A stretch of DNA of 64,000 nt, taken from assembly GCA_038062175.1 (NCBI GenBank), contig JBBTXR010000001.1:9420-73419 (forward strand). Reading direction: 5' to 3'. Of the stretch, positions 8,000 to 63,504 are shown piece by piece. The notes beneath the pieces are model-generated. The model searched no databases and had not been told where the DNA came from. It was given only the letters and a program-made list of their open reading frames with translations. Numbering within the stretch: the stretch's first letter is position 1; each line of letters opens with the position of its first letter. Source of the stretch: Patescibacteria group bacterium. Lineage in GTDB: Bacteria; Patescibacteriota; Minisyncoccia; Phycocordibacterales; Phycocordibacteraceae. The position numbers were made by a program, and so were the translations under genes.

Positions 8000-8905
8000 A
8001 TGGATACTCGCTCAATGCTTCGCCAATTCCTCGAATATACCGAGATCGAGCGCGGCCGAGCGGTGAAAACCGTCGAAAACTACGAGCATTACCTCACTCG
8101 TTTCTTTGATCAGATGGAAATTAAGGAGATTTCCGACATTACCGAGGAGAAAATACGCGAATTCAGGCTCTGGCTGAATCGTCAGCCGGGCACGTCAGGT
8201 ACGATGAAGCGACGAACGCAGAACTATTACCTCATTGCGCTTCGTGCCTTTCTCAAATTCCTTCGGAAGCGCGGCATAGAAGGTCTAAATCCTGAGCGAA
8301 TCGAGCTTGCCAAGCTTCCTGAGCGTCAGATCGATCTTATTTCAAGCACTGAGCTTGAGCGATTGATTACTGCGACTGATGGTGTGGGAGAAAAAGCGTT
8401 ACGCGATAAGGCTATTCTTGAACTTCTCTTCTCTACCGGACTTCGTGTGTCTGAGCTTTGCGCCCTTAATTCAGATATCGATCTCTCGAGGGATGATCTG
8501 TCAGTGCGCGGTAAGGGAGAGAAGGTGCGGGTGGTATTTCTCTCAGAAGCAAGCAAACAGGCCGTGCGAGAGTACTTGAAGGTCAGGAAAGATATGGAGG
8601 AGGCGCTTTTTGTGAATATTCCCCGTGTCGGTACTGACTCCAAGAAGACCCCTACCCGCCTCACTCCTCGCGGTGTTCAGCTCACCATCAAGTACTACGC
8701 GACTAAGGCCGGCATTACTAAGAAGGTCACTCCGCACGTGCTCAGACACTCTTTTGCCACTGACCTCCTTTCAAACGGAGCTGATCTACGTTCGGTACAG
8801 GCGCTGCTTGGGCATGCGTCTATCAATACGACCCAGATCTATACGCATGTCACCGATGCCCATCTTCGGGAGGTACATAAGCGGTTTCATTCGAGACAGA
8901 AATAA
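8000..8905 (+). CDS. xerC: Tyrosine site-specific recombinase XerC/XerD
   Basis: 301-aa ORF with the C-terminal catalytic box (HVLRHSFATDLLSNGADLRSVQALLGHASINTTQIYTHV) and an N-terminal SAM-like domain. Confidence 0.85.
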   Translation: MDTRSMLRQFLEYTEIERGRAVKTVENYEHYLTRFFDQMEIKEISDITEEKIREFRLWLNRQPGTSGTMKRRTQNYYLIALRAFLKFLRKRGIEGLNPERIELAKLPERQIDLISSTELERLITATDGVGEKALRDKAILELLFSTGLRVSELCALNSDIDLSRDDLSVRGKGEKVRVVFLSEASKQAVREYLKVRKDMEEALFVNIPRVGTDSKKTPTRLTPRGVQLTIKYYATKAGITKKVTPHVLRHSFATDLLSNGADLRSVQALLGHASINTTQIYTHVTDAHLREVHKRFHSRQK

Positions 8906-53573: not shown

Positions 53574-54041
53574 ATGAAACAATCTCCACGCGGATTCACG
53601 CTTATTGAGCTCCTGGTCGTCATTGCGATCATCGGGATCCTGTCTTCGGTCGTGCTCGCGTCATTGAATGTGGCGCGTAACCGGGCGAATGACGCAAAGA
53701 GAAAGTCTGACGCAGGTCAACTTGTTCGGGCAATCGCTAACTTCTACAGCACTAACGGTTCACTTCCGCAGGTTACTAACTTCTGCTCAACGGTGACGCA
53801 TACGACGGGTGGCCCGCTTCTTACGTCAGACCTGGTGCCAGGCTATATAGCAAAGCTTTCAAGTGATCCGACTCGTGGGGGTGGGGCAGGTGACTATATC
53901 TACAGAAATAGAGATGATCATAATGGCGGATATACGGTGTGCGCTGCTCTTGAAACCGATCCGGGTACGGAGGAGCCTTCTGATATGTCGTCATGTGCAG
54001 GTTGGTCGGCTTCGTATAACCACTGTATTACGCAGCGGTAA
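53574..54041 (+). CDS. Type IV major pilin (PilA-like), inside the str operon
   Basis: Classic prepilin N-terminus ([26 protein letters not shown]) and a C-terminal Cys pair. Confidence 0.85.
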
Positions 54042-54045
54042 AAGT

Positions 54046-54080
54046 GAGCGCGCCCCGGAAAGGGCGCGCGAAGCATAAAT
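54046..54080. terminator. Bidirectional GC hairpin between the pilin gene and the antisense ORF
   Basis: gcgcgccc-cggaaa-gggcgcgc 8-bp stem. T-rich on the minus side. Confidence 0.55.
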
Positions 54081-54083
54081 TTC

Positions 54084-54380
54084 TCAGTGACGTTTCGGTC
54101 GTAGTCCGAGTTGTTCACTCACGGTCCGGACCCTCGCCGATGTGTTTTTAAAGCCAAGACTGGTCAGGTCATGGCTACCTACCGCTGTCCAGGATTGTCC
54201 CGTCTCATCTGTCGCAAAAGTAACTTCAGGCATGGCACTGAACGTCGGGCCATACTTTGCTTTCTCAGCCTTTGATCGTGCGATGCTTGGCATGTGGGAG
54301 AAACCGAGTTCGCGAAGCTTTGCGGCGTGTTTACTCTCTGCGTCCATGAATTTATCTCCTTCTGTCGAAGACCGTACCAT
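54084..54380 (-). CDS. Hypothetical protein (antisense to the str operon direction)
   Basis: 98-aa ORF with no motif. Coding status uncertain. Confidence 0.3.
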   Translation of the reverse strand: MVRSSTEGDKFMDAESKHAAKLRELGFSHMPSIARSKAEKAKYGPTFSAMPEVTFATDETGQSWTAVGSHDLTSLGFKNTSARVRTVSEQLGLRPKRH

Positions 54381-56650: not shown

Positions 56651-57523
56651 CTATGTTCTTTTATATGCCTCTCGTAACGCAACTACGTCGTCACTTACGT
56701 TCTTCAGCGTAGGAACGAGGTGGTCGTAGAGTATATCGATGAGTTTGAATGTCTCTTCGAAAGCAGTGCGAGATTGAGGGAGGCTATGGAGTGAGAAGAT
56801 GTAGATCTTTGTTCCTACACACTCAAATCCATACGAGCCAAACGAATCCATATATGAGGCCATGAATGCAGGATCCAGCACCGTGAGTGCCTCCACTTCC
56901 ATCTCGTGAGAGGTGTACACATCAAATTGGTCATTAAATGGTCCTTCAAGCCGAAGGATTCTTGTTCCATGAGGGCTCCAATCTCTAGCTCCACTCCAAC
57001 GTTTTGGTCGCACTAGCAGATCGAGCATGGGAACTGCGCACTCTACCTCCCATACGAGCATCTGATGATATGTCCTGTGCTTGTGGCTACCGGTGGTGTA
57101 GTGGAAGGTGAAGAAGCGTGTCGGACGACCTTCGTAGGTTCCTGAGAACACGTCGGCGAGTCTGCGACTGTGCCCGAATGAAAAGATCTGTCCGGTAACG
57201 GTATTCATGGCAGCGGATTCGCTGTACGCGAAGCCGTAGGATGCGGCAATCTCCTTATAAAATTGTTTCTGGACGACACGTCGCGCAAGTCCGTATGCAA
57301 TCAAAAAGGGTGCGATAGGTAACGAAAGTACGAGGACCACACCCGTTGCGTTGCTTACGAAGGTTTCTAGAGATCCTAGTGCGAATGCGGCTACGACGAG
57401 CCCTGCAATAGCACAGAGTTCAAAGACTATGGCGATAGTGGCGAGTACCTGTGTCCGTCTGCGGTGTGTCACCCACAGATGCGTCATAAGGGCATCCTCA
57501 ACGCTTTCTATGCGAGATTCCAT
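56651..57523 (-). CDS. Hypothetical membrane protein (2 N-terminal TM helices plus cytoplasmic domain) between fusA and tuf
   Basis: 290-aa ORF on the opposite strand to the ribosomal cluster. Confidence 0.5.
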   Translation of the reverse strand: MESRIESVEDALMTHLWVTHRRRTQVLATIAIVFELCAIAGLVVAAFALGSLETFVSNATGVVLVLSLPIAPFLIAYGLARRVVQKQFYKEIAASYGFAYSESAAMNTVTGQIFSFGHSRRLADVFSGTYEGRPTRFFTFHYTTGSHKHRTYHQMLVWEVECAVPMLDLLVRPKRWSGARDWSPHGTRILRLEGPFNDQFDVYTSHEMEVEALTVLDPAFMASYMDSFGSYGFECVGTKIYIFSLHSLPQSRTAFEETFKLIDILYDHLVPTLKNVSDDVVALREAYKRT

Positions 57524-57622
57524 GATTTCCTCACAGTACCTTGATTCATATGGACGACCTTCTCTTATGCACAGGATTTCTCATGCTATGCTCAGCCGCA
57601 GAACAGTAGGAGGAAGGTTTCA

Positions 57623-57859
57623 ATGGCAACCTATTTCTTCGAGACGATCACAGACGGACAGGCACTGAGATTCAATGATGATGACGTACTCGTCTTCGGG
57701 GCAGTCAACAATGATCGATTTCCCTTCAGCGAGGTCTGCATCTTGGCTCGACCGCGACTTCCAGCACCGCCACCCGTACTCGGCAAACGGCTCCTGATGA
57801 CGCAGACGGTGCTCCGCAGACCTGAACTGTGGCAGAAAAGGACACGAGGCGACCCCTAG
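57623..57859 (+). CDS. Small hypothetical protein with strong SD and its own terminator
   Basis: AGGAGGAAGG sits 5 nt upstream of the ATG. 78 aa. The stop is embedded in a GC hairpin terminator. Confidence 0.45.
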   Translation: MATYFFETITDGQALRFNDDDVLVFGAVNNDRFPFSEVCILARPRLPAPPPVLGKRLLMTQTVLRRPELWQKRTRGDP

Positions 57860-58078: not shown

Positions 58079-59281
58079 ATGGCAGATGCATTCGATCGCA
58101 GCAAGCCGCACATGAACGTAGGAACCATCGGTCACGTTGACCATGGTAAGACCACGCTCACGGCTGCTATCCTCAACGTCCTTAACCTTAACTCTGGTGC
58201 CGGCTACAAGGCTCGCGCTGAGAAGGTTGAGAATATCGACAACGCGCCTGAAGAGAAGGCTCGTGGTATTACCATCGCGCTCCACCACTCGGAGTACGAG
58301 TCACCGAACCGCCACTACGCGCACATCGATGCGCCGGGCCACGCTGACTACATCAAGAACATGATCACTGGTGCCGCCCAGATGGACGGCGCAGTCCTCG
58401 TGGTTGCTGCAACTGACGGCGCAATGCCTCAGACCCGTGAGCACATCCTTCTTGCAAAGCAGGTTGGTGTGCCAAAGCTCATCGTCTTCCTCAACAAGGT
58501 GGACATGGTTGATGACAAGGACATGGTGGACCTCGTTGAAGAGGAAATCCGCGAACTTCTCACCAAGCAGGGCTTCGACGGTGCTGCTACCCCCGTTGTT
58601 AAGGGTTCAGGTTTGAAGGCACTTGAGGCAACCTCAGCAGATGACGAGTACGCACTCAAGGTGAAGGAGCTCATCGACACGATGGACTCATACTTCCCAG
58701 ATCCTGTTCGTGAGACCGACAAGCCGTTCCTTATGGCAATTGAGGACATCTTCTCGATTGAAGGACGCGGTACGGTGGTCACCGGTCGTATCGACCGCGG
58801 CATCGTAAAGGTGGGTGAGGAAGTCGACATCGTCGGTCTTCATGACACCGCCAAGACGACTGTCACCGGTATCGAGATGTTCAACAAGCAGCTCCAGGAG
58901 GGTCAGGCAGGCGACAACGCAGGTATTCTTCTTCGCGGTACGAAGAAGGAGGACGTGCATCGCGGCCAGGTGCTCGCAAAGACTGGTTCTGTGAAGCCAC
59001 ACACCGAGTTCGAGGCTGAGGTCTACATCCTCTCCAAGGACGAGGGTGGTCGCCACACCCCATTCTTCTCAGGTTACAAGCCTCAGTTCTACGTTCGTAC
59101 AACCGACGTGACTGGTGAAGTGACCCTTCCAGACGGAAAGGAAATGGTTATGCCAGGTGACACCGTGACCTTCAAGGTCAAGCTCACCGCGCCTATCGCC
59201 ATGGAGGAGCAGATGCGCTTTGCTATCCGCGAGGGTGGCAAGACGGTTGGTGCCGGCGTCGTGACGAAGATCACCGTCTAA
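58079..59281 (+). CDS. tuf: Elongation factor Tu (divergent)
   Basis: [18 protein letters not shown] motifs with full EF-Tu length. Unusual substitutions versus the canonical sequence ([12 protein letters not shown]). Confidence 0.95.
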
Positions 59282-59312
59282 GGTATCATTCTCACAACGC
59301 ACATTGACTCGT

Positions 59313-59678
59313 ATGGCAACCGCAACTAAGAAAGTATCCAAGAAGAAGGTCGCTGAGGCAGGTCCTGCCGCAGAGCCCAAGCTTCGCATCCGTGTGCGCG
59401 CCTACGAGCACAAGATTCTCGACCTTTCGGTGAAGCAGATCATGGATACGGCTAATCGCTTCGATGCGAAAATCGTCGGTCCGATCCCGCTCCCGACCGA
59501 GATCAAGCGCTGGACCGTGAACCGCTCCACGTTCGTGCACAAGGACGCACGCGAGCAGTTCGAGATGCGCATCCACAAGCGCCTCATCGACATCATGTCG
59601 CCGAACCCTAAGGTTATCGAGGCTCTCACGAACCTCAACCTTCCTTCAGGAGTCACGATTGATGTGAAGATGGCGTAA
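59313..59678 (+). CDS. rpsJ: 30S ribosomal protein S10
   Basis: S10 core (RIRVRAYEHKILD...KDAREQFEMRIHKRLIDI) with a Lys/Ala-rich N-terminal extension. Possible alternative TTG start at 59304. Confidence 0.9.
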   Translation: MATATKKVSKKKVAEAGPAAEPKLRIRVRAYEHKILDLSVKQIMDTANRFDAKIVGPIPLPTEIKRWTVNRSTFVHKDAREQFEMRIHKRLIDIMSPNPKVIEALTNLNLPSGVTIDVKMA

Positions 59679-59695
59679 GTCAAAAGATGCAAAGC

Positions 59696-59726
59696 AAAGC
59701 GCCCCGAAAGGGGCGTTTTGCTTTTG
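59696..59726 (+). terminator. Hairpin H1 of a conserved terminator-like repeat family (after rpsJ)
   Basis: aaagcgcccc-gaaa-ggggcgtttt followed by GCTTTTG. Shares the GGGGCGTTTTGCTTTT tail with H2-H4. Confidence 0.7.
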
Positions 59727-59764
59727 TCTGTCGCTAATGATTATCTATCGATAGGAGGTGTCTC

Positions 59765-60040
59765 ATGTTCTTGATCTATTTTTTATCTCCCCATGAAAGG
59801 TGGCGGCGATTCTGTGAAAGAAATCGTGAGTTCCAGCGGGCGCGTCGTAGATGGTTGCGGCAAACTCCTGGCACGCCAGAGGAGAGAGCTGCGGGCAGAG
59901 AACTGAGTCGAATTAGAAAGAAGCTTCACCGACTTGGGGCATCGCTCGGTATGGCAGAAGTCGCCACTGAGCTCCTGCTTCCGCGGGAGTTTCGTTCACG
60001 CGGCACGCCCCCGATTCCCAGGTGGATTCTTGCACGTTAG
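59765..60040 (+). CDS. Array ORF A: 91-aa Arg-rich hypothetical protein
   Basis: GGAGGTG SD 4 nt upstream of the ATG. Bounded by hairpins H1 and H2. Confidence 0.5.
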   Translation: MFLIYFLSPHERWRRFCERNREFQRARRRWLRQTPGTPEERAAGRELSRIRKKLHRLGASLGMAEVATELLLPREFRSRGTPPIPRWILAR

Positions 60041-60047
60041 TTAGCAA

Positions 60048-60078
60048 GGGCGCCTCGGAAACGGGGCGTTTTGCTTTT
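60048..60078 (+). terminator. Hairpin H2 of the repeat family
   Basis: gggcgcctcg-gaaa-cggggcg followed by TTTTGCTTTT. Confidence 0.7.
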
Positions 60079-60125
60079 ATATATTTATGTGTTATTATTG
60101 ACCTGAATTATTTGGAGGTCTTTAG

Positions 60126-60434
60126 ATGAGCACGTTTTGGGTTTCTGAAGCAGTGATCAAGGAGACGGTTCGGAAATACCAACTTCCCGAACACGAGGTC
60201 AGATGCCGGTTCATTCAGATTGATGGGTACCTGAAGGACGCGACCAGGTTGAGCGATGCAACGCTCAAGAGCACGATGTGGGACTATCGCCTCCGTGGAG
60301 ATCACTACCAGGCCTCACTTCTCTGGACGGTCTGGACCTGTAGAGCCTTGGGCTTCACGGAACAAGAGATGGTCGACCTGATCATCCCACTGACGGTCTA
60401 CCCAGCTGATGACCTGGTTCAAAGGGTCGCGTAG
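60126..60434 (+). CDS. Array ORF B: 102-aa hypothetical protein
   Basis: GGAGGT SD 6 nt upstream of the ATG. Bounded by H2 and H3. Confidence 0.5.
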   Translation: MSTFWVSEAVIKETVRKYQLPEHEVRCRFIQIDGYLKDATRLSDATLKSTMWDYRLRGDHYQASLLWTVWTCRALGFTEQEMVDLIIPLTVYPADDLVQRVA

Positions 60435-60452
60435 TCCCTCAAGATCAACGTG

Positions 60453-60485
60453 CGACGCCTCGAGCAATCGGGGCGTTTTGCTTTT
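60453..60485 (+). terminator. Hairpin H3 of the repeat family
   Basis: gcgacgcctcg-agcaat-cggggcg followed by TTTTGCTTTT. Confidence 0.7.
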
Positions 60486-60528
60486 ACCCATGCGCATGCG
60501 ATAGTCGCCACAGAAGAGGAGGTGATCC

Positions 60529-60927
60529 ATGACTGGATTCATCAAGACGCACGAGCGACTGTCAGCATTTGCGGAAGTGATCAAGCCGAGACATATCGCG
60601 GTTCCTTTCCACGCCTTCGGCAAGGCGGAGATCGACGAGAATGCAGGTCACCTCGTGAGTTTCTTCCAGGAGCAAGACGCATGGGTGCCGTTCGAAATGT
60701 CGGCCTTCAAGGAGTTTTGCACACGCTTCAGGCCGAATGGCAGTCCCATCTTCTACGGTCTTGTCGGTGACGGGTTCGATGAGGGTGATCCTACTATCCA
60801 TTACGATCCGCATCTCATCCGGCTTCTCGATGATGGTCGATTGATTGTGACCGACCGATTCATCCTCCGTTGTAGCGGCATGAGTTCGGATCGGATTAGC
60901 GGTCTGACGCGAGAAATTGCAGCCTGA
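60529..60927 (+). CDS. Array ORF C: 132-aa acidic hypothetical protein
   Basis: GGAGGTG SD 4 nt upstream of the ATG. Bounded by H3 and H4. Confidence 0.5.
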   Translation: MTGFIKTHERLSAFAEVIKPRHIAVPFHAFGKAEIDENAGHLVSFFQEQDAWVPFEMSAFKEFCTRFRPNGSPIFYGLVGDGFDEGDPTIHYDPHLIRLLDDGRLIVTDRFILRCSGMSSDRISGLTREIAA

Positions 60928-60934
60928 TCCTAAG

Positions 60935-60967
60935 CGACGCCCCGAGCAATCGGGGCGTTTTGCTTTT
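60935..60967 (+). terminator. Hairpin H4 of the repeat family
   Basis: gcgacgccccg-agcaat-cggggcg followed by TTTTGCTTTT. Near-identical to H3. Confidence 0.7.
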
Positions 60968-61023
60968 CTCTTCATGTGAAATGCGATATTCTCATCCTCT
61001 GTTCTTTCGAAAGGAGGTGATAT

Positions 61024-61406
61024 TCGTGAGCAGAAGACCAATCGGATCTCGTGTCCTGTGGGGTGAAGCTAGGAGTGCTGCACAACATCTCGATGCTGCG
61101 ATGGTTCAGTTTTACCCTGATCCTACAACGTATAAAGGATTTGACGGTAAGCTAGACGATTCCAGTCTTCCCCAAAAGAAGAACTTCGCGCGTTGGAAAC
61201 GTCCAAAGCGTAAGGATGGAACCCGTAAACGGGGAACTCAAGTTCGGCCTCTCGTCATTCGCGAAATCAGAAACGCGAAGGATGAGAAGGGAAGATCGGT
61301 GCGTGGGAGATTCGTCTCTCTTGCTGACTACGAGCAACGCGCTGCGAAATACCGTGAAGATGTGAAGAAATATTTTGAAGAAAACAAGAGGCGGTCGCGG
61401 AGATAG
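61024..61406 (+). CDS. Array ORF D: 127-aa Lys/Arg-rich hypothetical protein (GTG start)
   Basis: GGAGGTG SD 6 nt upstream of the GTG at 61024. The ORF-track ATG at 60960 lies inside hairpin H4 and lacks an SD. A GC hairpin (ggtcgcgg...ccgcgacc) overlaps the 3' end. Confidence 0.45.
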
Positions 61407-61418
61407 GTCCGCGACCGT

Positions 61419-61452
61419 AACGCCCTCGAGCAATCGAGGCGTTTTCTTTTCC
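61419..61452 (+). terminator. Hairpin H5 of the repeat family (compensatory variant)
   Basis: acgccctcg-agcaat-cgaggcgt followed by TTTTCTTTT. The stem keeps base pairing through paired substitutions relative to H3/H4. Confidence 0.65.
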
Positions 61453-61520
61453 ATAGATACAAATTACGGTATGCTCTTCGTCTGTTCCTTGTTCTAGAAA
61501 CGAGATTAGGGGAGTCGATA

Positions 61521-61652
61521 GTGACGAAAAAGATCAAGAAAGAATTGAGCGCCGAGGAGCGCAGAGATTGGCGGGAAAACAGTCAGAATGCAGCGCCCAA
61601 ACCGCCGGTAGGGGTCCTCAAAGATCTCAAAGAGTCTAACCCTCGTGATTGA
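61521..61652 (+). CDS. Array ORF E: 43-aa basic peptide (GTG start)
   Basis: GGGGAG SD 5 nt upstream of the GTG. Followed by a distinct GC hairpin terminator. Not in the ORF track. Confidence 0.3.
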   Translation: MTKKIKKELSAEERRDWRENSQNAAPKPPVGVLKDLKESNPRD

Positions 61653-61661
61653 GTGCTCAGT

Positions 61662-61697
61662 GGCCGCCTCGCAAGGGCGGCCTCCATTTTATTCTTG
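61662..61697 (+). terminator. Rho-independent terminator after ORF E
   Basis: ggccgcc-tcgcaag-ggcggcc followed by tccattttattcttg. Confidence 0.65.
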
Positions 61698-61984
61698 CGG
61701 TATATCTAACTCTGCGTTTAAATAGATGAAGGTGCTCTTTGTGCCACACGCCGCAAACGCGGCGATTCCGCGTTTCTACGAGGGGTTTGTGTGTTTCGAA
61801 GACTGCAAATGCGAGTCGAACAACGGCTAGTCGATCTTGAGTGTGAGCATCGTGTTGTGAAGCGCTTCTCGCACGTTGCGAGACATCCGAGCGATATACA
61901 GTATCGACGCGCGTTCTGGTACTTCGTATGCAGATGCTTCGGCATCTGCCCAGAAAAAACGCTCGCAGGAGCGTAAAAGAGAAT

Positions 61985-62021
61985 GGGCTCCGCGATTTCT
62001 CGCGGAGCCCTTCTTGGTTTG
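61985..62021. terminator. Bidirectional terminator at the end of the antisense membrane-protein gene
   Basis: gggctccgcg-atttct-cgcggagccc 10-bp stem with T-rich flanks on both strands. Confidence 0.7.
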
Positions 62022-62063
62022 ACCTATCAGTTGGTGGCTAGCGACACCCTGTGTCTCAGATGA

Positions 62064-62678
62064 CTACATCGCGTCGAGAAGATCGTCTTCCGTGTTCCAG
62101 GCGCCGATATAGACGCGATCGAAGCCTCGAACGGCGAGAACGAACGGATCCTTGAGTGTATATTCGACGAGCACATACGCTCCGGCTGCTTCTGCCGCCC
62201 TGATCCTTCGATCGAAGCGCGCTGGCGGCTCGATGATCCAATCCTTTCGTGCCGCTGATAGGTGCAGCTGCCGCCAGCTCCAGGTGGTTCTCGGACCTTT
62301 CCGCTCCGCATAGATCCATAGGCAGAACGTTAGAATGCAGCCGATGGCGGGAGTGAGAAGGAGAGCCGCGTGTAGTTGCAGACCAGGCATCGAAAGACAG
62401 GCCAAGCCGGCAACAGTCATCGCGACGACGACGTAGAGATAGTTGTTCGAGTACTGCCGGCCGGTGTACCGCTCGATTATCCTCGGCACGAAGTAGAGTC
62501 TCGGTAGCCAGAGCAGGTAGTAGAGGGTCTGGAGCAAGGCTGGCAATCGGTCCTTGCGCTGATGTGCCTGCACGAGGTGCTTTGGAATAACCGGCACCCC
62601 TTGTGCACGCAGCTCGCTCTCAAGCTTGCTGCAGGTTCTTGCGCCCTTCTCGAAGGCGCGTACTGCATCCATCTTCAT
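62064..62678 (-). CDS. Hypothetical membrane protein, antisense to the ribosomal cluster
   Basis: Two or three TM helices (YLYVVVAMTVAGLACL, LLLTPAIGCILTFCLWIY). Start chosen at the Met preceded by AGAGGT SD (62678). The ORF-track maximal extent to 62996 would overlap rplC. Confidence 0.5.
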   Translation of the reverse strand: MKMDAVRAFEKGARTCSKLESELRAQGVPVIPKHLVQAHQRKDRLPALLQTLYYLLWLPRLYFVPRIIERYTGRQYSNNYLYVVVAMTVAGLACLSMPGLQLHAALLLTPAIGCILTFCLWIYAERKGPRTTWSWRQLHLSAARKDWIIEPPARFDRRIRAAEAAGAYVLVEYTLKDPFVLAVRGFDRVYIGAWNTEDDLLDAM

Positions 62679-62772
62679 GAGAACCTCTAGTGCTATGGGG
62701 GAGAGGCACCCAATGTGCTTCTCCAGAACTCCCGTGGTAGTTGTAGCCGGAAAGCCTCGTAGAGACAAGAAG

Positions 62773-62801
62773 TTGCATTGCCTGAAGGCTTCGTGTAGAG
62801 T
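62773..62801 (+). promoter_or_regulatory. Sigma-70-like promoter for rplC-rplD (TTGCAT-N17-TAGAGT) with a structured ~90-nt leader
   Basis: Same architecture as the rpsL promoter. Leader contains GC hairpins (cccctcgggg, ggccgggaagcccttcgggg) before the rplC ATG. Confidence 0.45.
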
Positions 62802-62892
62802 GCCCCTATCGCTACGTATCCCCTCGGGGAGACCAATGGCCGGGAAGCCCTTCGGGGACGAACGCGCTGTTGAGGCGCGCTTTATTTTTTTC

Positions 62893-63504
62893 ATGAAATT
62901 CCTACTCGCCAAGAAAGGTCGTATGACCCAGATCTTCGATACCGATGGTCGGGTCTTTGCTGGTACCGTCCTTACGACTGCTCCGATGACCGTCACCCAG
63001 GTGAAGACGGTTGAGTCTGACGGGTATGAGGCGGTTCAGGTTGGTTTTGGCGAGAAGAAGGAGAGTCGCGTGAATAAGGCCGTCCTTGGACACACCAAGG
63101 GTAAGGGCTTCCAGACCATCAAGGAGTTCCGCACCGAAGCAGGAGACCTTGCGGTAGGTTCTGAGGTAACCGCAGACACCTTCGCTGAGGGTGATGTGGT
63201 TGAAGTCTCGGGCACCGTGAAGGGTAGGGGCTTTGCCGGAGTGGTGAAGCGCCATGGTTTCCATGGTGGTCGTCGCTCGCATGGTCAGAAGCACTCTGAG
63301 CGTGAGCCAGGATCGATTGGTGGCGGTGGTCGTGCCGGTGGTCGCGTCGCTAAGGGTATGCGCATGGGTGGCCGCATGGGTGGTAACCGCATCACGGTAA
63401 CCAACCTCAAGGTGCTCAAGGTCGATGCAGCTCGCGGCGAGATCATCATCTCAGGAGCCGTTCCTGGCGCTCCTGGTTCACTCGTCGAGATCGTCTCGAA
63501 ATAA
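62893..63504 (+). CDS. rplC: 50S ribosomal protein L3
   Basis: L3 N-terminus (MKFLLAKKGRMTQIFD) and a Gly-rich C-terminal region. The ORF-track start at 62626 is a spurious upstream extension. Confidence 0.9.
   Translation: MKFLLAKKGRMTQIFDTDGRVFAGTVLTTAPMTVTQVKTVESDGYEAVQVGFGEKKESRVNKAVLGHTKGKGFQTIKEFRTEAGDLAVGSEVTADTFAEGDVVEVSGTVKGRGFAGVVKRHGFHGGRRSHGQKHSEREPGSIGGGGRAGGRVAKGMRMGGRMGGNRITVTNLKVLKVDAARGEIIISGAVPGAPGSLVEIVSK

Follow-up and report, generated by a model that had tools for sequence, protein, structure and literature searches.

We analysed a 64-kb stretch of DNA (the window) from the metagenome-assembled genome of a Patescibacteria bacterium, a member of the candidate phyla radiation (CPR) from Hainich groundwater. 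In this genome the ribosomal protein genes rpsJ and rplC are separated by an array of small open reading frames (ORFs), each followed by a terminator-like hairpin. We believe that the array is probably a lineage-typical slot for accessory genes, located between two transcription units and holding small genes that are punctuated one by one. The S10 operon appears to be broken after rpsJ in this lineage of Paceibacteria. The tuf-rpsJ unit would stop at a strong intrinsic terminator, and rplC would begin a separate unit that has a promoter of its own and a structured leader resembling an attenuator. What lies between this terminator and this promoter would act as a permissive slot that gathers lineage-specific genes, occupied in the present case by a chain of compact, probably monocistronic units. 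Such a structure is unusual for bacteria in general and typical of its clade.

The rpsJ-rplC gap in related species and in the window

The similarity of its uL3 protein (77% to the top GTDB species representative) places the host in the Paceibacteria/Parcubacteria; the source genome is recorded as ENA ERZ1292643 and NCBI GCA_964366495.1, with locus tags AAB582_…. Eighty related species were fetched via uL3, and the distance between rpsJ and rplC was measured in the 62 that hold both genes. Among these Paceibacteria the gap ranges from 2 to 4,789 nt, being 20 nt or shorter in 16 species and longer than 300 nt in 24. The cargo is heterogeneous, with Pfam content unrelated between species and few families shared. 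It includes a short-chain dehydrogenase (locus L007), a sugar transferase (L022), NAMPT with NrtR (L024), a HicA toxin with an upstream partner as well as an amidase (L027), an NYN-domain protein (L029), a NUDIX protein (L030) and a peptidoglycan-binding Ig-domain protein (L083); many further cargo genes in the relatives are unknowns. Since gap size and cargo both vary by species, the junction is a hotspot in the class and the array in the window is no one-off. The original prediction, which was made from the sequence of the window alone, had suggested a lineage-specific accessory-gene hotspot, and this suggestion is supported by the comparison. Its statement that an insertion at this site is highly atypical is valid for bacteria at large but fails within this clade, given the proportion of long gaps and the three further interruptions that the host carries in its str/S10 gene order.

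Some relatives have 'empty' sites. In L023, L025, L039, L042 and L057 the 160–220 nt between the two genes consist of a terminator, a TTGCAT promoter and the leader only. Therefore, all cargo is located between the rpsJ terminator and the −35 element of rplC. In the related locus L089 the cargo has the same layout as in the window, with one gene to one terminator.

The gap in the window measures 3,214 nt, consistent with the insertion of about 3.2 kb that had been predicted. It contains five small forward ORFs (A–E), each with a Shine-Dalgarno (SD) site and a terminator-like hairpin, and the ORFs, SD sites and hairpins are as first described (Table 1). That inventory was correct for the five units but had missed a possible sixth unit, a reverse gene for a 204-aa membrane protein, and the promoter and leader of rplC. 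Among the five proteins no two are related, as had been stated, and their isoelectric points (pI) agree with the charges originally assigned to them, A and D being strongly basic and C mildly acidic. Searches of Pfam, PHROGs, PADLOC and NCBIfam gave no significant match for any of A–E, the best being a sub-threshold PADLOC match to D (E = 0.024), and the 204-aa reverse protein has no family match in the same four databases. No tRNA or known non-coding RNA was found in the array. The array sequence is identical in five other assemblies of the locus, which thus offer no polymorphism for a strain-level dN/dS.

Table 1. Features of the rpsJ-rplC gap and its flanks (window coordinates)
Feature	Position	Strand	Description
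rpsJ (uS10)	59316-59678	+	Pfam Ribosomal_S10, E = 4e-34; closes tuf-rpsJ unit; 97% aa identity to rpsJ of L088 and L089
T0, rpsJ terminator	59691-59725	+	15-bp stem, GAAA loop, tail GTTTTGCTTTT; −30 kcal/mol, z = −6.7
ORF A	59765-60040	+	91 aa, pI 11.8; SD AGGAGGTG at 59753-59760; orphan, doubtful coding status
T1, hairpin after A	60047-60078	+	16-nt tail identical to that of T0; −20.3 kcal/mol
ORF B	60126-60434	+	102 aa; SD GGAGGT at 60114-60119; orphan; hypothetical protein AAB582_00405
T2, hairpin after B	60454-60485	+	97% identity to T3 over 34 nt
ORF C	60529-60927	+	132 aa, pI 5.6; SD AGGAGGTG; uncharacterised Patescibacteria family
T3, hairpin after C	60936-60967	+	orthologous copies kept in L086 and L088
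D upstream region	60981-61025	+	−10-like ATGCGATATT, motif TCTGTTCTTTC, SD AGGAGGTG; conserved
ORF D	61026-61406	+	126 aa from GTG, pI 10.8; SD AGGAGGTG; NCBI annotates a 101-aa version
T4, double hairpin after D	61391-61451	+	second hairpin (61421-61451) a diverged T3-type copy; −36.3 kcal/mol
ORF E	61521-61652	+	43 aa from GTG; SD GGGGAG at 61509-61514; GGTATGCT upstream at 61468-61475
T5, after E	61662-61692 (hairpin 61662-61682)	+	sequence unrelated to T0-T4; −16.9 kcal/mol, z = −2.6
Possible sixth ORF	61791-61976	+	61 aa from GTG; GAGGGG upstream; doubtful
T6, bidirectional terminator	61985-62010		between forward array and convergent reverse gene; −28.9 kcal/mol
Reverse gene, 204 aa	62064-62678	−	two predicted transmembrane segments; hypothetical protein AAB582_00420
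rplC promoter	62773-62801	+	TTGCAT-17-TAGAGT; position and sequence conserved across species
rplC leader	62802-62892	+	structured; ends in terminator-like hairpin (62863-62879) and U-tract abutting ATG
rplC (uL3)	62893-63504	+	Pfam Ribosomal_L3; first gene of rplC-rplD-rplW-rplB unit

Coding status of the ORFs and the C and D families

A codon-usage model was trained on 26 long ORFs of the window, for which host genes gave a mean log-likelihood of 0.32 (standard deviation 0.13). ORFs C and E scored 0.25 and 0.18, respectively, each in the best of its six frames. ORFs D (0.06) and B (0.04) were also best in their own frame, but marginally so, while the score of ORF A (−0.15) was matched by another frame and that of the 61-aa ORF (−0.20) was poor. 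Part of the array might thus be non-coding: chance ORFs between tandemly duplicated terminator-promoter units would include A and perhaps B, E and the 61-aa ORF. Besides the low scores of A, B and the 61-aa ORF, long alternative-frame ORFs overlap the region, and the annotation by NCBI calls B, C, a shortened D and the 204-aa gene but neither A nor E; E and the 61-aa ORF are called as genes by no annotation source. ORF A has no homologue in the related loci compared, large protein databases not having been effectively searched for it. ORF B likewise has none in the related loci, and a word-seeded search of 5.8 billion proteins returned its self-match alone. A single-sequence AlphaFold2 model of B is all-helical with a predicted local distance difference test score (pLDDT) of 60, and Foldseek gave no match for it in the PDB at E ≤ 1. 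A search for A and B as decayed copies of C, D, S10 or the Arg-rich family of L016 and L089 gave no signal by six-frame hidden Markov model (HMM), tblastx or blastn comparison.

Against a non-coding array stand the SD sites, the fit of the ORFs to the array and the two families described below. A consensus SD is found 5–7 nt before the start in four of the five array ORFs, compared with an SD core of at least 5 nt in about 4 of 47 long host ORFs (Fisher exact test, P = 0.001). The ORFs fill the space between the hairpins exactly, and C and D belong to demonstrably real families. We therefore regard chance ORFs as quite possible for part of the array, if on balance doubtful. The SD sites also set the array apart from its host. 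Many host genes have a (G)GTAnAnT −10 box 6–9 nt before the ATG (for example at 8000, 33876, 38351, 47568 and 49307), which suggests that host mRNAs are mainly leaderless. An SD leads the genes of the array and much of the gap cargo in relatives. Nothing relevant was found in the literature on the S10 operon, leaderless genes or SD use in CPR bacteria.

A word-seeded search of the same 5.8 billion proteins returned only the self-match of ORF C. Using HMMER on 1.84 billion cluster representatives, we found a C family of 83 cluster representatives at E ≤ 1e-3. Its members are about 125–145 aa long and share the motifs IRPxDI, FGKxEVExxAGxL, FFQxRGxWxxF, GLxGxW and VTxxFIxRC (alignment A2), and those that are named come from Patescibacteria or Paceibacterota. 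The family has no relative in Pfam, PHROGs, NCBIfam or the PDB, and the single-sequence AlphaFold model of C, with a pLDDT of 34, was unusable. A C-family gene directly follows rpsJ in at least six species. It is found there in L088 (uS10 97% identical to that of the window), L089 (uL3 77% identical), L090-92, L098 and L099, being the sole gap gene in L090-92, and another member lies inside the rpsJ-rplC gap of L016. Distant members are neighbours of atpDC, topA, genes for cell-wall (murein) synthesis or further small ORFs, and a metagenome scan for the C subfamily gave one distant member, beside topA. In L093 (1-5305) a distant member is part of a chain of seven small genes on the same strand, each individually terminated; 21 terminator-like sites were counted in this region versus 6.3 expected. 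The layout of one gene and one terminator is thus a recurrent one in these genomes.

ORF D is a divergent member of a family of small basic proteins with the core WKRxKxxGxRPxG…RDxxGRF. Homologues are encoded in L006 (9263-9610), L086 (717-1055), L089 (713-1030) and L094 (589-918), and L088 shares the N-terminus MSRRPIG. In L086, L088, L089 and L094 the D homologue comes after C, and in L006 it is the sole gap gene. The spacer between C and D is 69–76% identical to those of L086, L088 and L089 and 61% identical to that of L094, compared with 58–61% for the coding DNA of C. The conserved spacer comprises the hairpin, GCGGTATGCTCT, TCTGTTCTTTC and AAGGAGG, and the motifs upstream of D recur before the D homologue of L006. 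By eye, an E-like ORF was seen after D in L086. The C-terminus of the 61-aa ORF is 58% identical over 12 aa to the product of the 78-aa gene that stands last ahead of rplC in L089 (E = 0.002), and the same ORF has a weak, sub-threshold match to the C-terminal part of uS10 in NCBIfam (E = 7e-4, 19.9 bits versus a cut-off of 96); neither of the two is conclusive. A decayed duplicate of the rpsJ 3′ end at 61791-61976 was considered but is not established, since the S10 HMM of the lineage gave E values of 0.12 to 1.4 and the codon-by-codon identity fades past 30 nt. Together, the shared positions and spacers are what would be expected if C and D, probably together with E and the 61-aa ORF, are residents of the slot that have been inherited vertically. 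They are shared with relatives but apparently evolve at a far higher rate than the ribosomal proteins on either side: the identity of C is only about 40% between species with 97% for uS10 and 77% for uL3.

C and D, perhaps with E and the 61-aa ORF, could instead be lineage-specific ribosome- or translation-associated proteins that are kept by rpsJ for co-expression. The position of C in at least six species, the presence of D in the same gap in at least five, and the small, very basic, ribosomal protein-like character of D all fit such a role, and CPR ribosomes lack some universal proteins, a loss that also speaks for it. We nevertheless consider this unlikely. Strong terminators part each gene from rpsJ and from the others, the divergence of C is out of proportion to that of uS10 and uL3, and no ribosomal protein family in Pfam or NCBIfam matches any of A–E. 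In addition, C is absent from L006 and D from L090, most relatives have neither, and the distant C-family members lie beside the other genes named above. The original prediction had taken conserved, annotated ribosomal or housekeeping genes at this position as a refutation, and this applies by half: C and D are conserved in place, but as unannotated hypothetical proteins rather than as housekeeping or ribosomal ones. Its suggestion of a set of ribosome-associated proteins is not supported.

Shared punctuation and proposed turnover of the cargo

A GC-rich hairpin with a T-tract follows every ORF of the array. The free energies of the hairpins are between −17 and −36 kcal/mol, with z-scores of −2.6 to −6.7 compared with shuffled sequences. 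GC-rich stem-loops with a U-tract just past a stop codon were found at seven sites from 59691 to 62010, and 15 terminator-like sites were observed in the interval 57.5–64 kb versus 5.8 expected. The 16-nt tail GGGGCGTTTTGCTTTT is present in four exact copies in the 64 kb, at 59710, 60063, 60470 and 60952, a count reached by none of 100 shuffles. These copies belong to T0, which is the terminator of rpsJ itself, and to T1, T2 and T3. The early observation of four stem-loops with a common tail was accurate as to the number of copies, but it had not recognised that one belongs to rpsJ, that the hairpin after D is diverged and that the hairpin after E is unrelated. No other copy of the hairpin or tail was found in the window, where the remaining terminators have unrelated stems, and an exact metagenome scan for the T3-type hairpin gave no match. 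Dispersed repeats such as repetitive extragenic palindromic (REP) elements or miniature inverted-repeat transposable elements (MITE) were rejected, since tail and hairpin are confined to the array within the 64 kb; generic REP elements had been named at the outset as a finding that would undermine the interpretation. An array of clustered regularly interspaced short palindromic repeats (CRISPR), already discounted in the original prediction, was rejected because the repeats are terminators and the segments between them are ORFs.

The paralogy extends over the whole spacer unit. In the spacer alignment the hairpin is followed by a −10-like ATGCGATAnT or GGTATGCT and then by AGGAGGTG. The tail GTTTTGCTTTT includes the −35-like hexamer TTGCTT, and in the intergenic spacers IG0-IG3 a −10-like box is located 16–19 nt downstream of it. 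The host promoters before rpsL, fusA and rplC have the form TTGCAT/TTGCTT-17-TAnnnT. This similarity suggests that the hairpin tail may double as the U-tract of one unit and the −35 element of the next, and such a dual role would explain why the tail is conserved beyond a simple U-run. Each unit would then consist of a hairpin terminator whose tail provides TTGCTT as −35, a −10 box, a short 5′ untranslated region (UTR), a strong SD, a small ORF and the next hairpin.

The 3′ arms that are identical within this genome differ from the orthologous hairpins of relatives, which indicates local duplication or gene conversion. From the pattern of identities, T1 may have been copied from T0, and T2 and T4 from T3. 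Such copying would fit the addition of A and B upstream of an older C-D-E core, that is, A and B would be additions specific to this genome. Since their punctuation seems to have been copied from their neighbours (T1 resembling T0, and T2 resembling T3), A and B would be either recent acquisitions or young or spurious ORFs.

Duplications at the conserved flank were also found in relatives. In L027 (4892-5727) the 3′ end of rpsJ is duplicated over 88 nt with 93% identity. The two copies enclose the HicA gene and its partner, and the left one bears a terminator similar to the one in L030. This arrangement suggests that DNA of a foreign species was recombined into L027 via rpsJ as a homologous anchor. 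In L030 (6070-7726) a 48-nt duplication of the rpsJ end and terminator flanks a gene for a 234-aa unknown protein, and L007 shows a similarly small duplication, that of the terminator. In the window itself, duplication is limited to the hairpin tails, the rpsJ-like remnant at 61791-61900 being not significant by the lineage HMM. In L032 (2492-2593) a run of N is flanked by 55 nt that repeat the 3′ end of rpsJ exactly; this is most likely a scaffolding artefact and was excluded from the duplication count. Cargo turnover would most likely be anchored, through recombination, on the conserved 3′ end of rpsJ and its terminator.

Several points weigh against a slot filled with individually transcribed genes. 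The −35 and −10 boxes were assigned by eye and were not picked up by a simple scan for the sigma-70 consensus. Leaky terminators could allow the array to be read through from the promoter of rpsJ. ORF A has no coding signal beyond its SD and its length, and that of ORF B is marginal. The exact identity of four 16-nt tails is more than a terminator-promoter role by itself would account for, and it speaks for duplication or gene conversion in the recent past. Finally, the count of hairpin copies covers the 64-kb window, the part of the genome examined amounts to 71 kb, and copies elsewhere are possible. A more speculative extension, which we think improbable, is that the fused terminator-promoter-SD units form a nursery of small genes at a highly expressed, recombination-prone site, where duplicated punctuation captures or gives birth to ORFs such as A and B, and where the older C and D have become CPR-specific translation-associated factors.

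The original prediction had likened the unit organisation to a cassette array. According to a mobile-cassette explanation, which may be integron-like or involve another site-specific system, the hairpin is a recombination site and each ORF with its hairpin is a cassette captured at the rpsJ terminator. The 16 nt of 3′ arm and tail that are identical in four hairpins, the near identity of T2 and T3, the cassette-sized spacing of the units (353–484 nt), the unrelated ORFs, and the attL/attR-like duplications around single genes in L027 and L030, with the duplicated terminator of L007, are all compatible with capture of this kind. Integron attC sites are imperfect palindromes of 57–141 nt with R″ (RYYYAAC) and R′ (GTTRRRY) cores and extrahelical bases, and their cassettes are promoterless. 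By comparison, the hairpins of the array are 26–34 nt long and near perfect, with loops of 4–6 nt and U-tracts; neither core is present, the 3′ arm GCGTTTTGC does not fit GTTRRRY, and the units bear their own promoter-like and SD elements. The tail is not found in the rest of the window. A scan of ten ORFs of 296–406 aa in the 64 kb gave a single tyrosine recombinase, a 301-aa, probably Xer-type protein with a Phage_integrase domain and a SAM-like N-terminal domain, which is encoded at 8000-8905, 51 kb upstream of the array. In the 7 kb that follow downstream, there are genes of ribosomal proteins and three others for which no recombinase domain is recorded. The integrase criterion alone is not decisive, since clusters of attC sites lacking integron integrases (CALINs) have no intI. 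The orthologous conservation of the C-D order, T3 and spacer in L086, L088 and L089, and of the C-D order in L094, argues further against shuffling cassettes, and we consider mobile cassettes distinctly unlikely.

The last explanation places at this highly expressed site an island for defence or anti-defence, as the original prediction had also suggested, or for toxin-antitoxin pairs. It could draw on proteins that are small, fast-evolving and mostly orphan, on the acidic C adjoining the basic D and on the HicA toxin in the same slot of L027, but it is very unlikely, because neither A–E nor the 204-aa protein nor 53 members of the C family have a significant match in the four databases, the 61-aa ORF has no significant match to a defence or toxin-antitoxin family, C and D are found independently of each other, and one terminator per gene is unlike a bicistronic toxin-antitoxin pair.

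The rplC leader, flanking junctions and comparison with known systems

The unit downstream of the accessory-gene slot begins with a leader of about 95 nt, for which a consensus structure was obtained from alignment A3 with RNAalifold. An outer helix (GCUAcGU/ACcAAUGGC) encloses a hairpin with many compensatory changes. A covariance model (R1) matched 29 of 84 sources; every match lies immediately 5′ of rplC, and none precedes rpsJ. Pairing was observed in 97.5% of cells, with 48 compensatory cells compared with 15.6 in shuffles and six pairs with double changes, while controls with a slid register gave 29–44% pairing. Rfam 15 gave no match at E ≤ 5 over 59200-63000. The leader may be an L4- or L3-responsive attenuator, and it may be the counterpart in this lineage of the L4-controlled S10 leader.

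The genes around the array are, in order, rpsL, rpsG, a pilin-like gene, a reverse 98-aa ORF, fusA, a reverse 290-aa gene, a 78-aa gene, tuf, rpsJ, the array, rplC and rplD. Four str/S10 junctions are interrupted in the host: rpsG|fusA, fusA|tuf, rpsJ|rplC and rplB|rpsS. The first of these (window 53574-54380) holds the pilin-like N_methyl protein and the reverse 98-aa ORF, and the second (window 56651-57859) the reverse 290-aa and 78-aa genes. At rplB|rpsS, which was seen in L001 (7236-9510), there are a weak match to 2-oxoglutarate-Fe(II) oxygenases, a DUF3298 protein and a 173-aa gene. L001 and L002, which are assemblies of the same population, differ from the window inside tuf in clusters at 58633-58642 and 58327-58333; these differences reflect either strain variation or an artefact of the assembly.

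Within this CPR subclade, a gene adjacency that ranks among the most conserved of bacteria appears to have become a boundary between two transcription units, and this boundary tolerates and keeps additional genes. The C family, with at least 83 sequence clusters and a preferred position after rpsJ, and its basic partner family D are newly described, and together with the rplC leader they are the most useful leads from this work. The SD-led small genes, set against a host gene set that appears largely leaderless or SD-less, bear on translation start in CPR bacteria.

The accessory-gene slot can be compared with several known systems. Chromosomal hotspots of accessory genes acquired by horizontal gene transfer (HGT), which Oliveira and colleagues reportedly described in 2017, are said to be flanked by conserved core genes. 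The rpsJ-rplC slot resembles them in its fixed core flanks, in its variable content across 62 species, a toxin gene included, and possibly in traces of recombination at a conserved flank in related species. It differs in lying inside a ribosomal operon that is single elsewhere, in the stable inheritance of C and D, and in its very small units with paralogous punctuation. Phage morons are autonomous promoter-gene-terminator units inserted between two genes. The array shares with them one small gene per unit, a promoter-like element and terminator for each, and a location between two functionally related genes, but it has no prophage context or phage family match, and its units are chained, with terminator and −35 elements that are apparently fused and paralogous. 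Integron arrays and CALINs are similar in their tandem, unrelated small ORFs on one strand, in the repeated imperfect palindrome after each and in the cassette-like spacing; they differ from the array, which has no intI, short terminators without R″ and R′ cores, promoter-like elements and SD sites of its own, and a conserved order.

The leader has its own parallels. In the E. coli S10 operon, the leader mediates L4-dependent transcription attenuation and translational control. The leader described here is likewise a conserved structured 5′ UTR before an L4-encoding operon, but it precedes rplC and not rpsJ, and it has no match in Rfam 15. The same general likeness extends to a candidate L4 leader upstream of rplC-rplD-rplW-rplB in Archaeoglobi, and this archaeal element is the sole candidate L4 leader before rplC in the survey concerned (PMC7247131). 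In the present case, a terminator hairpin with a U-tract closes the leader directly ahead of the operon's first gene, and leaders of this type are restricted to the subclade of Paceibacteria represented by the 29 sources.

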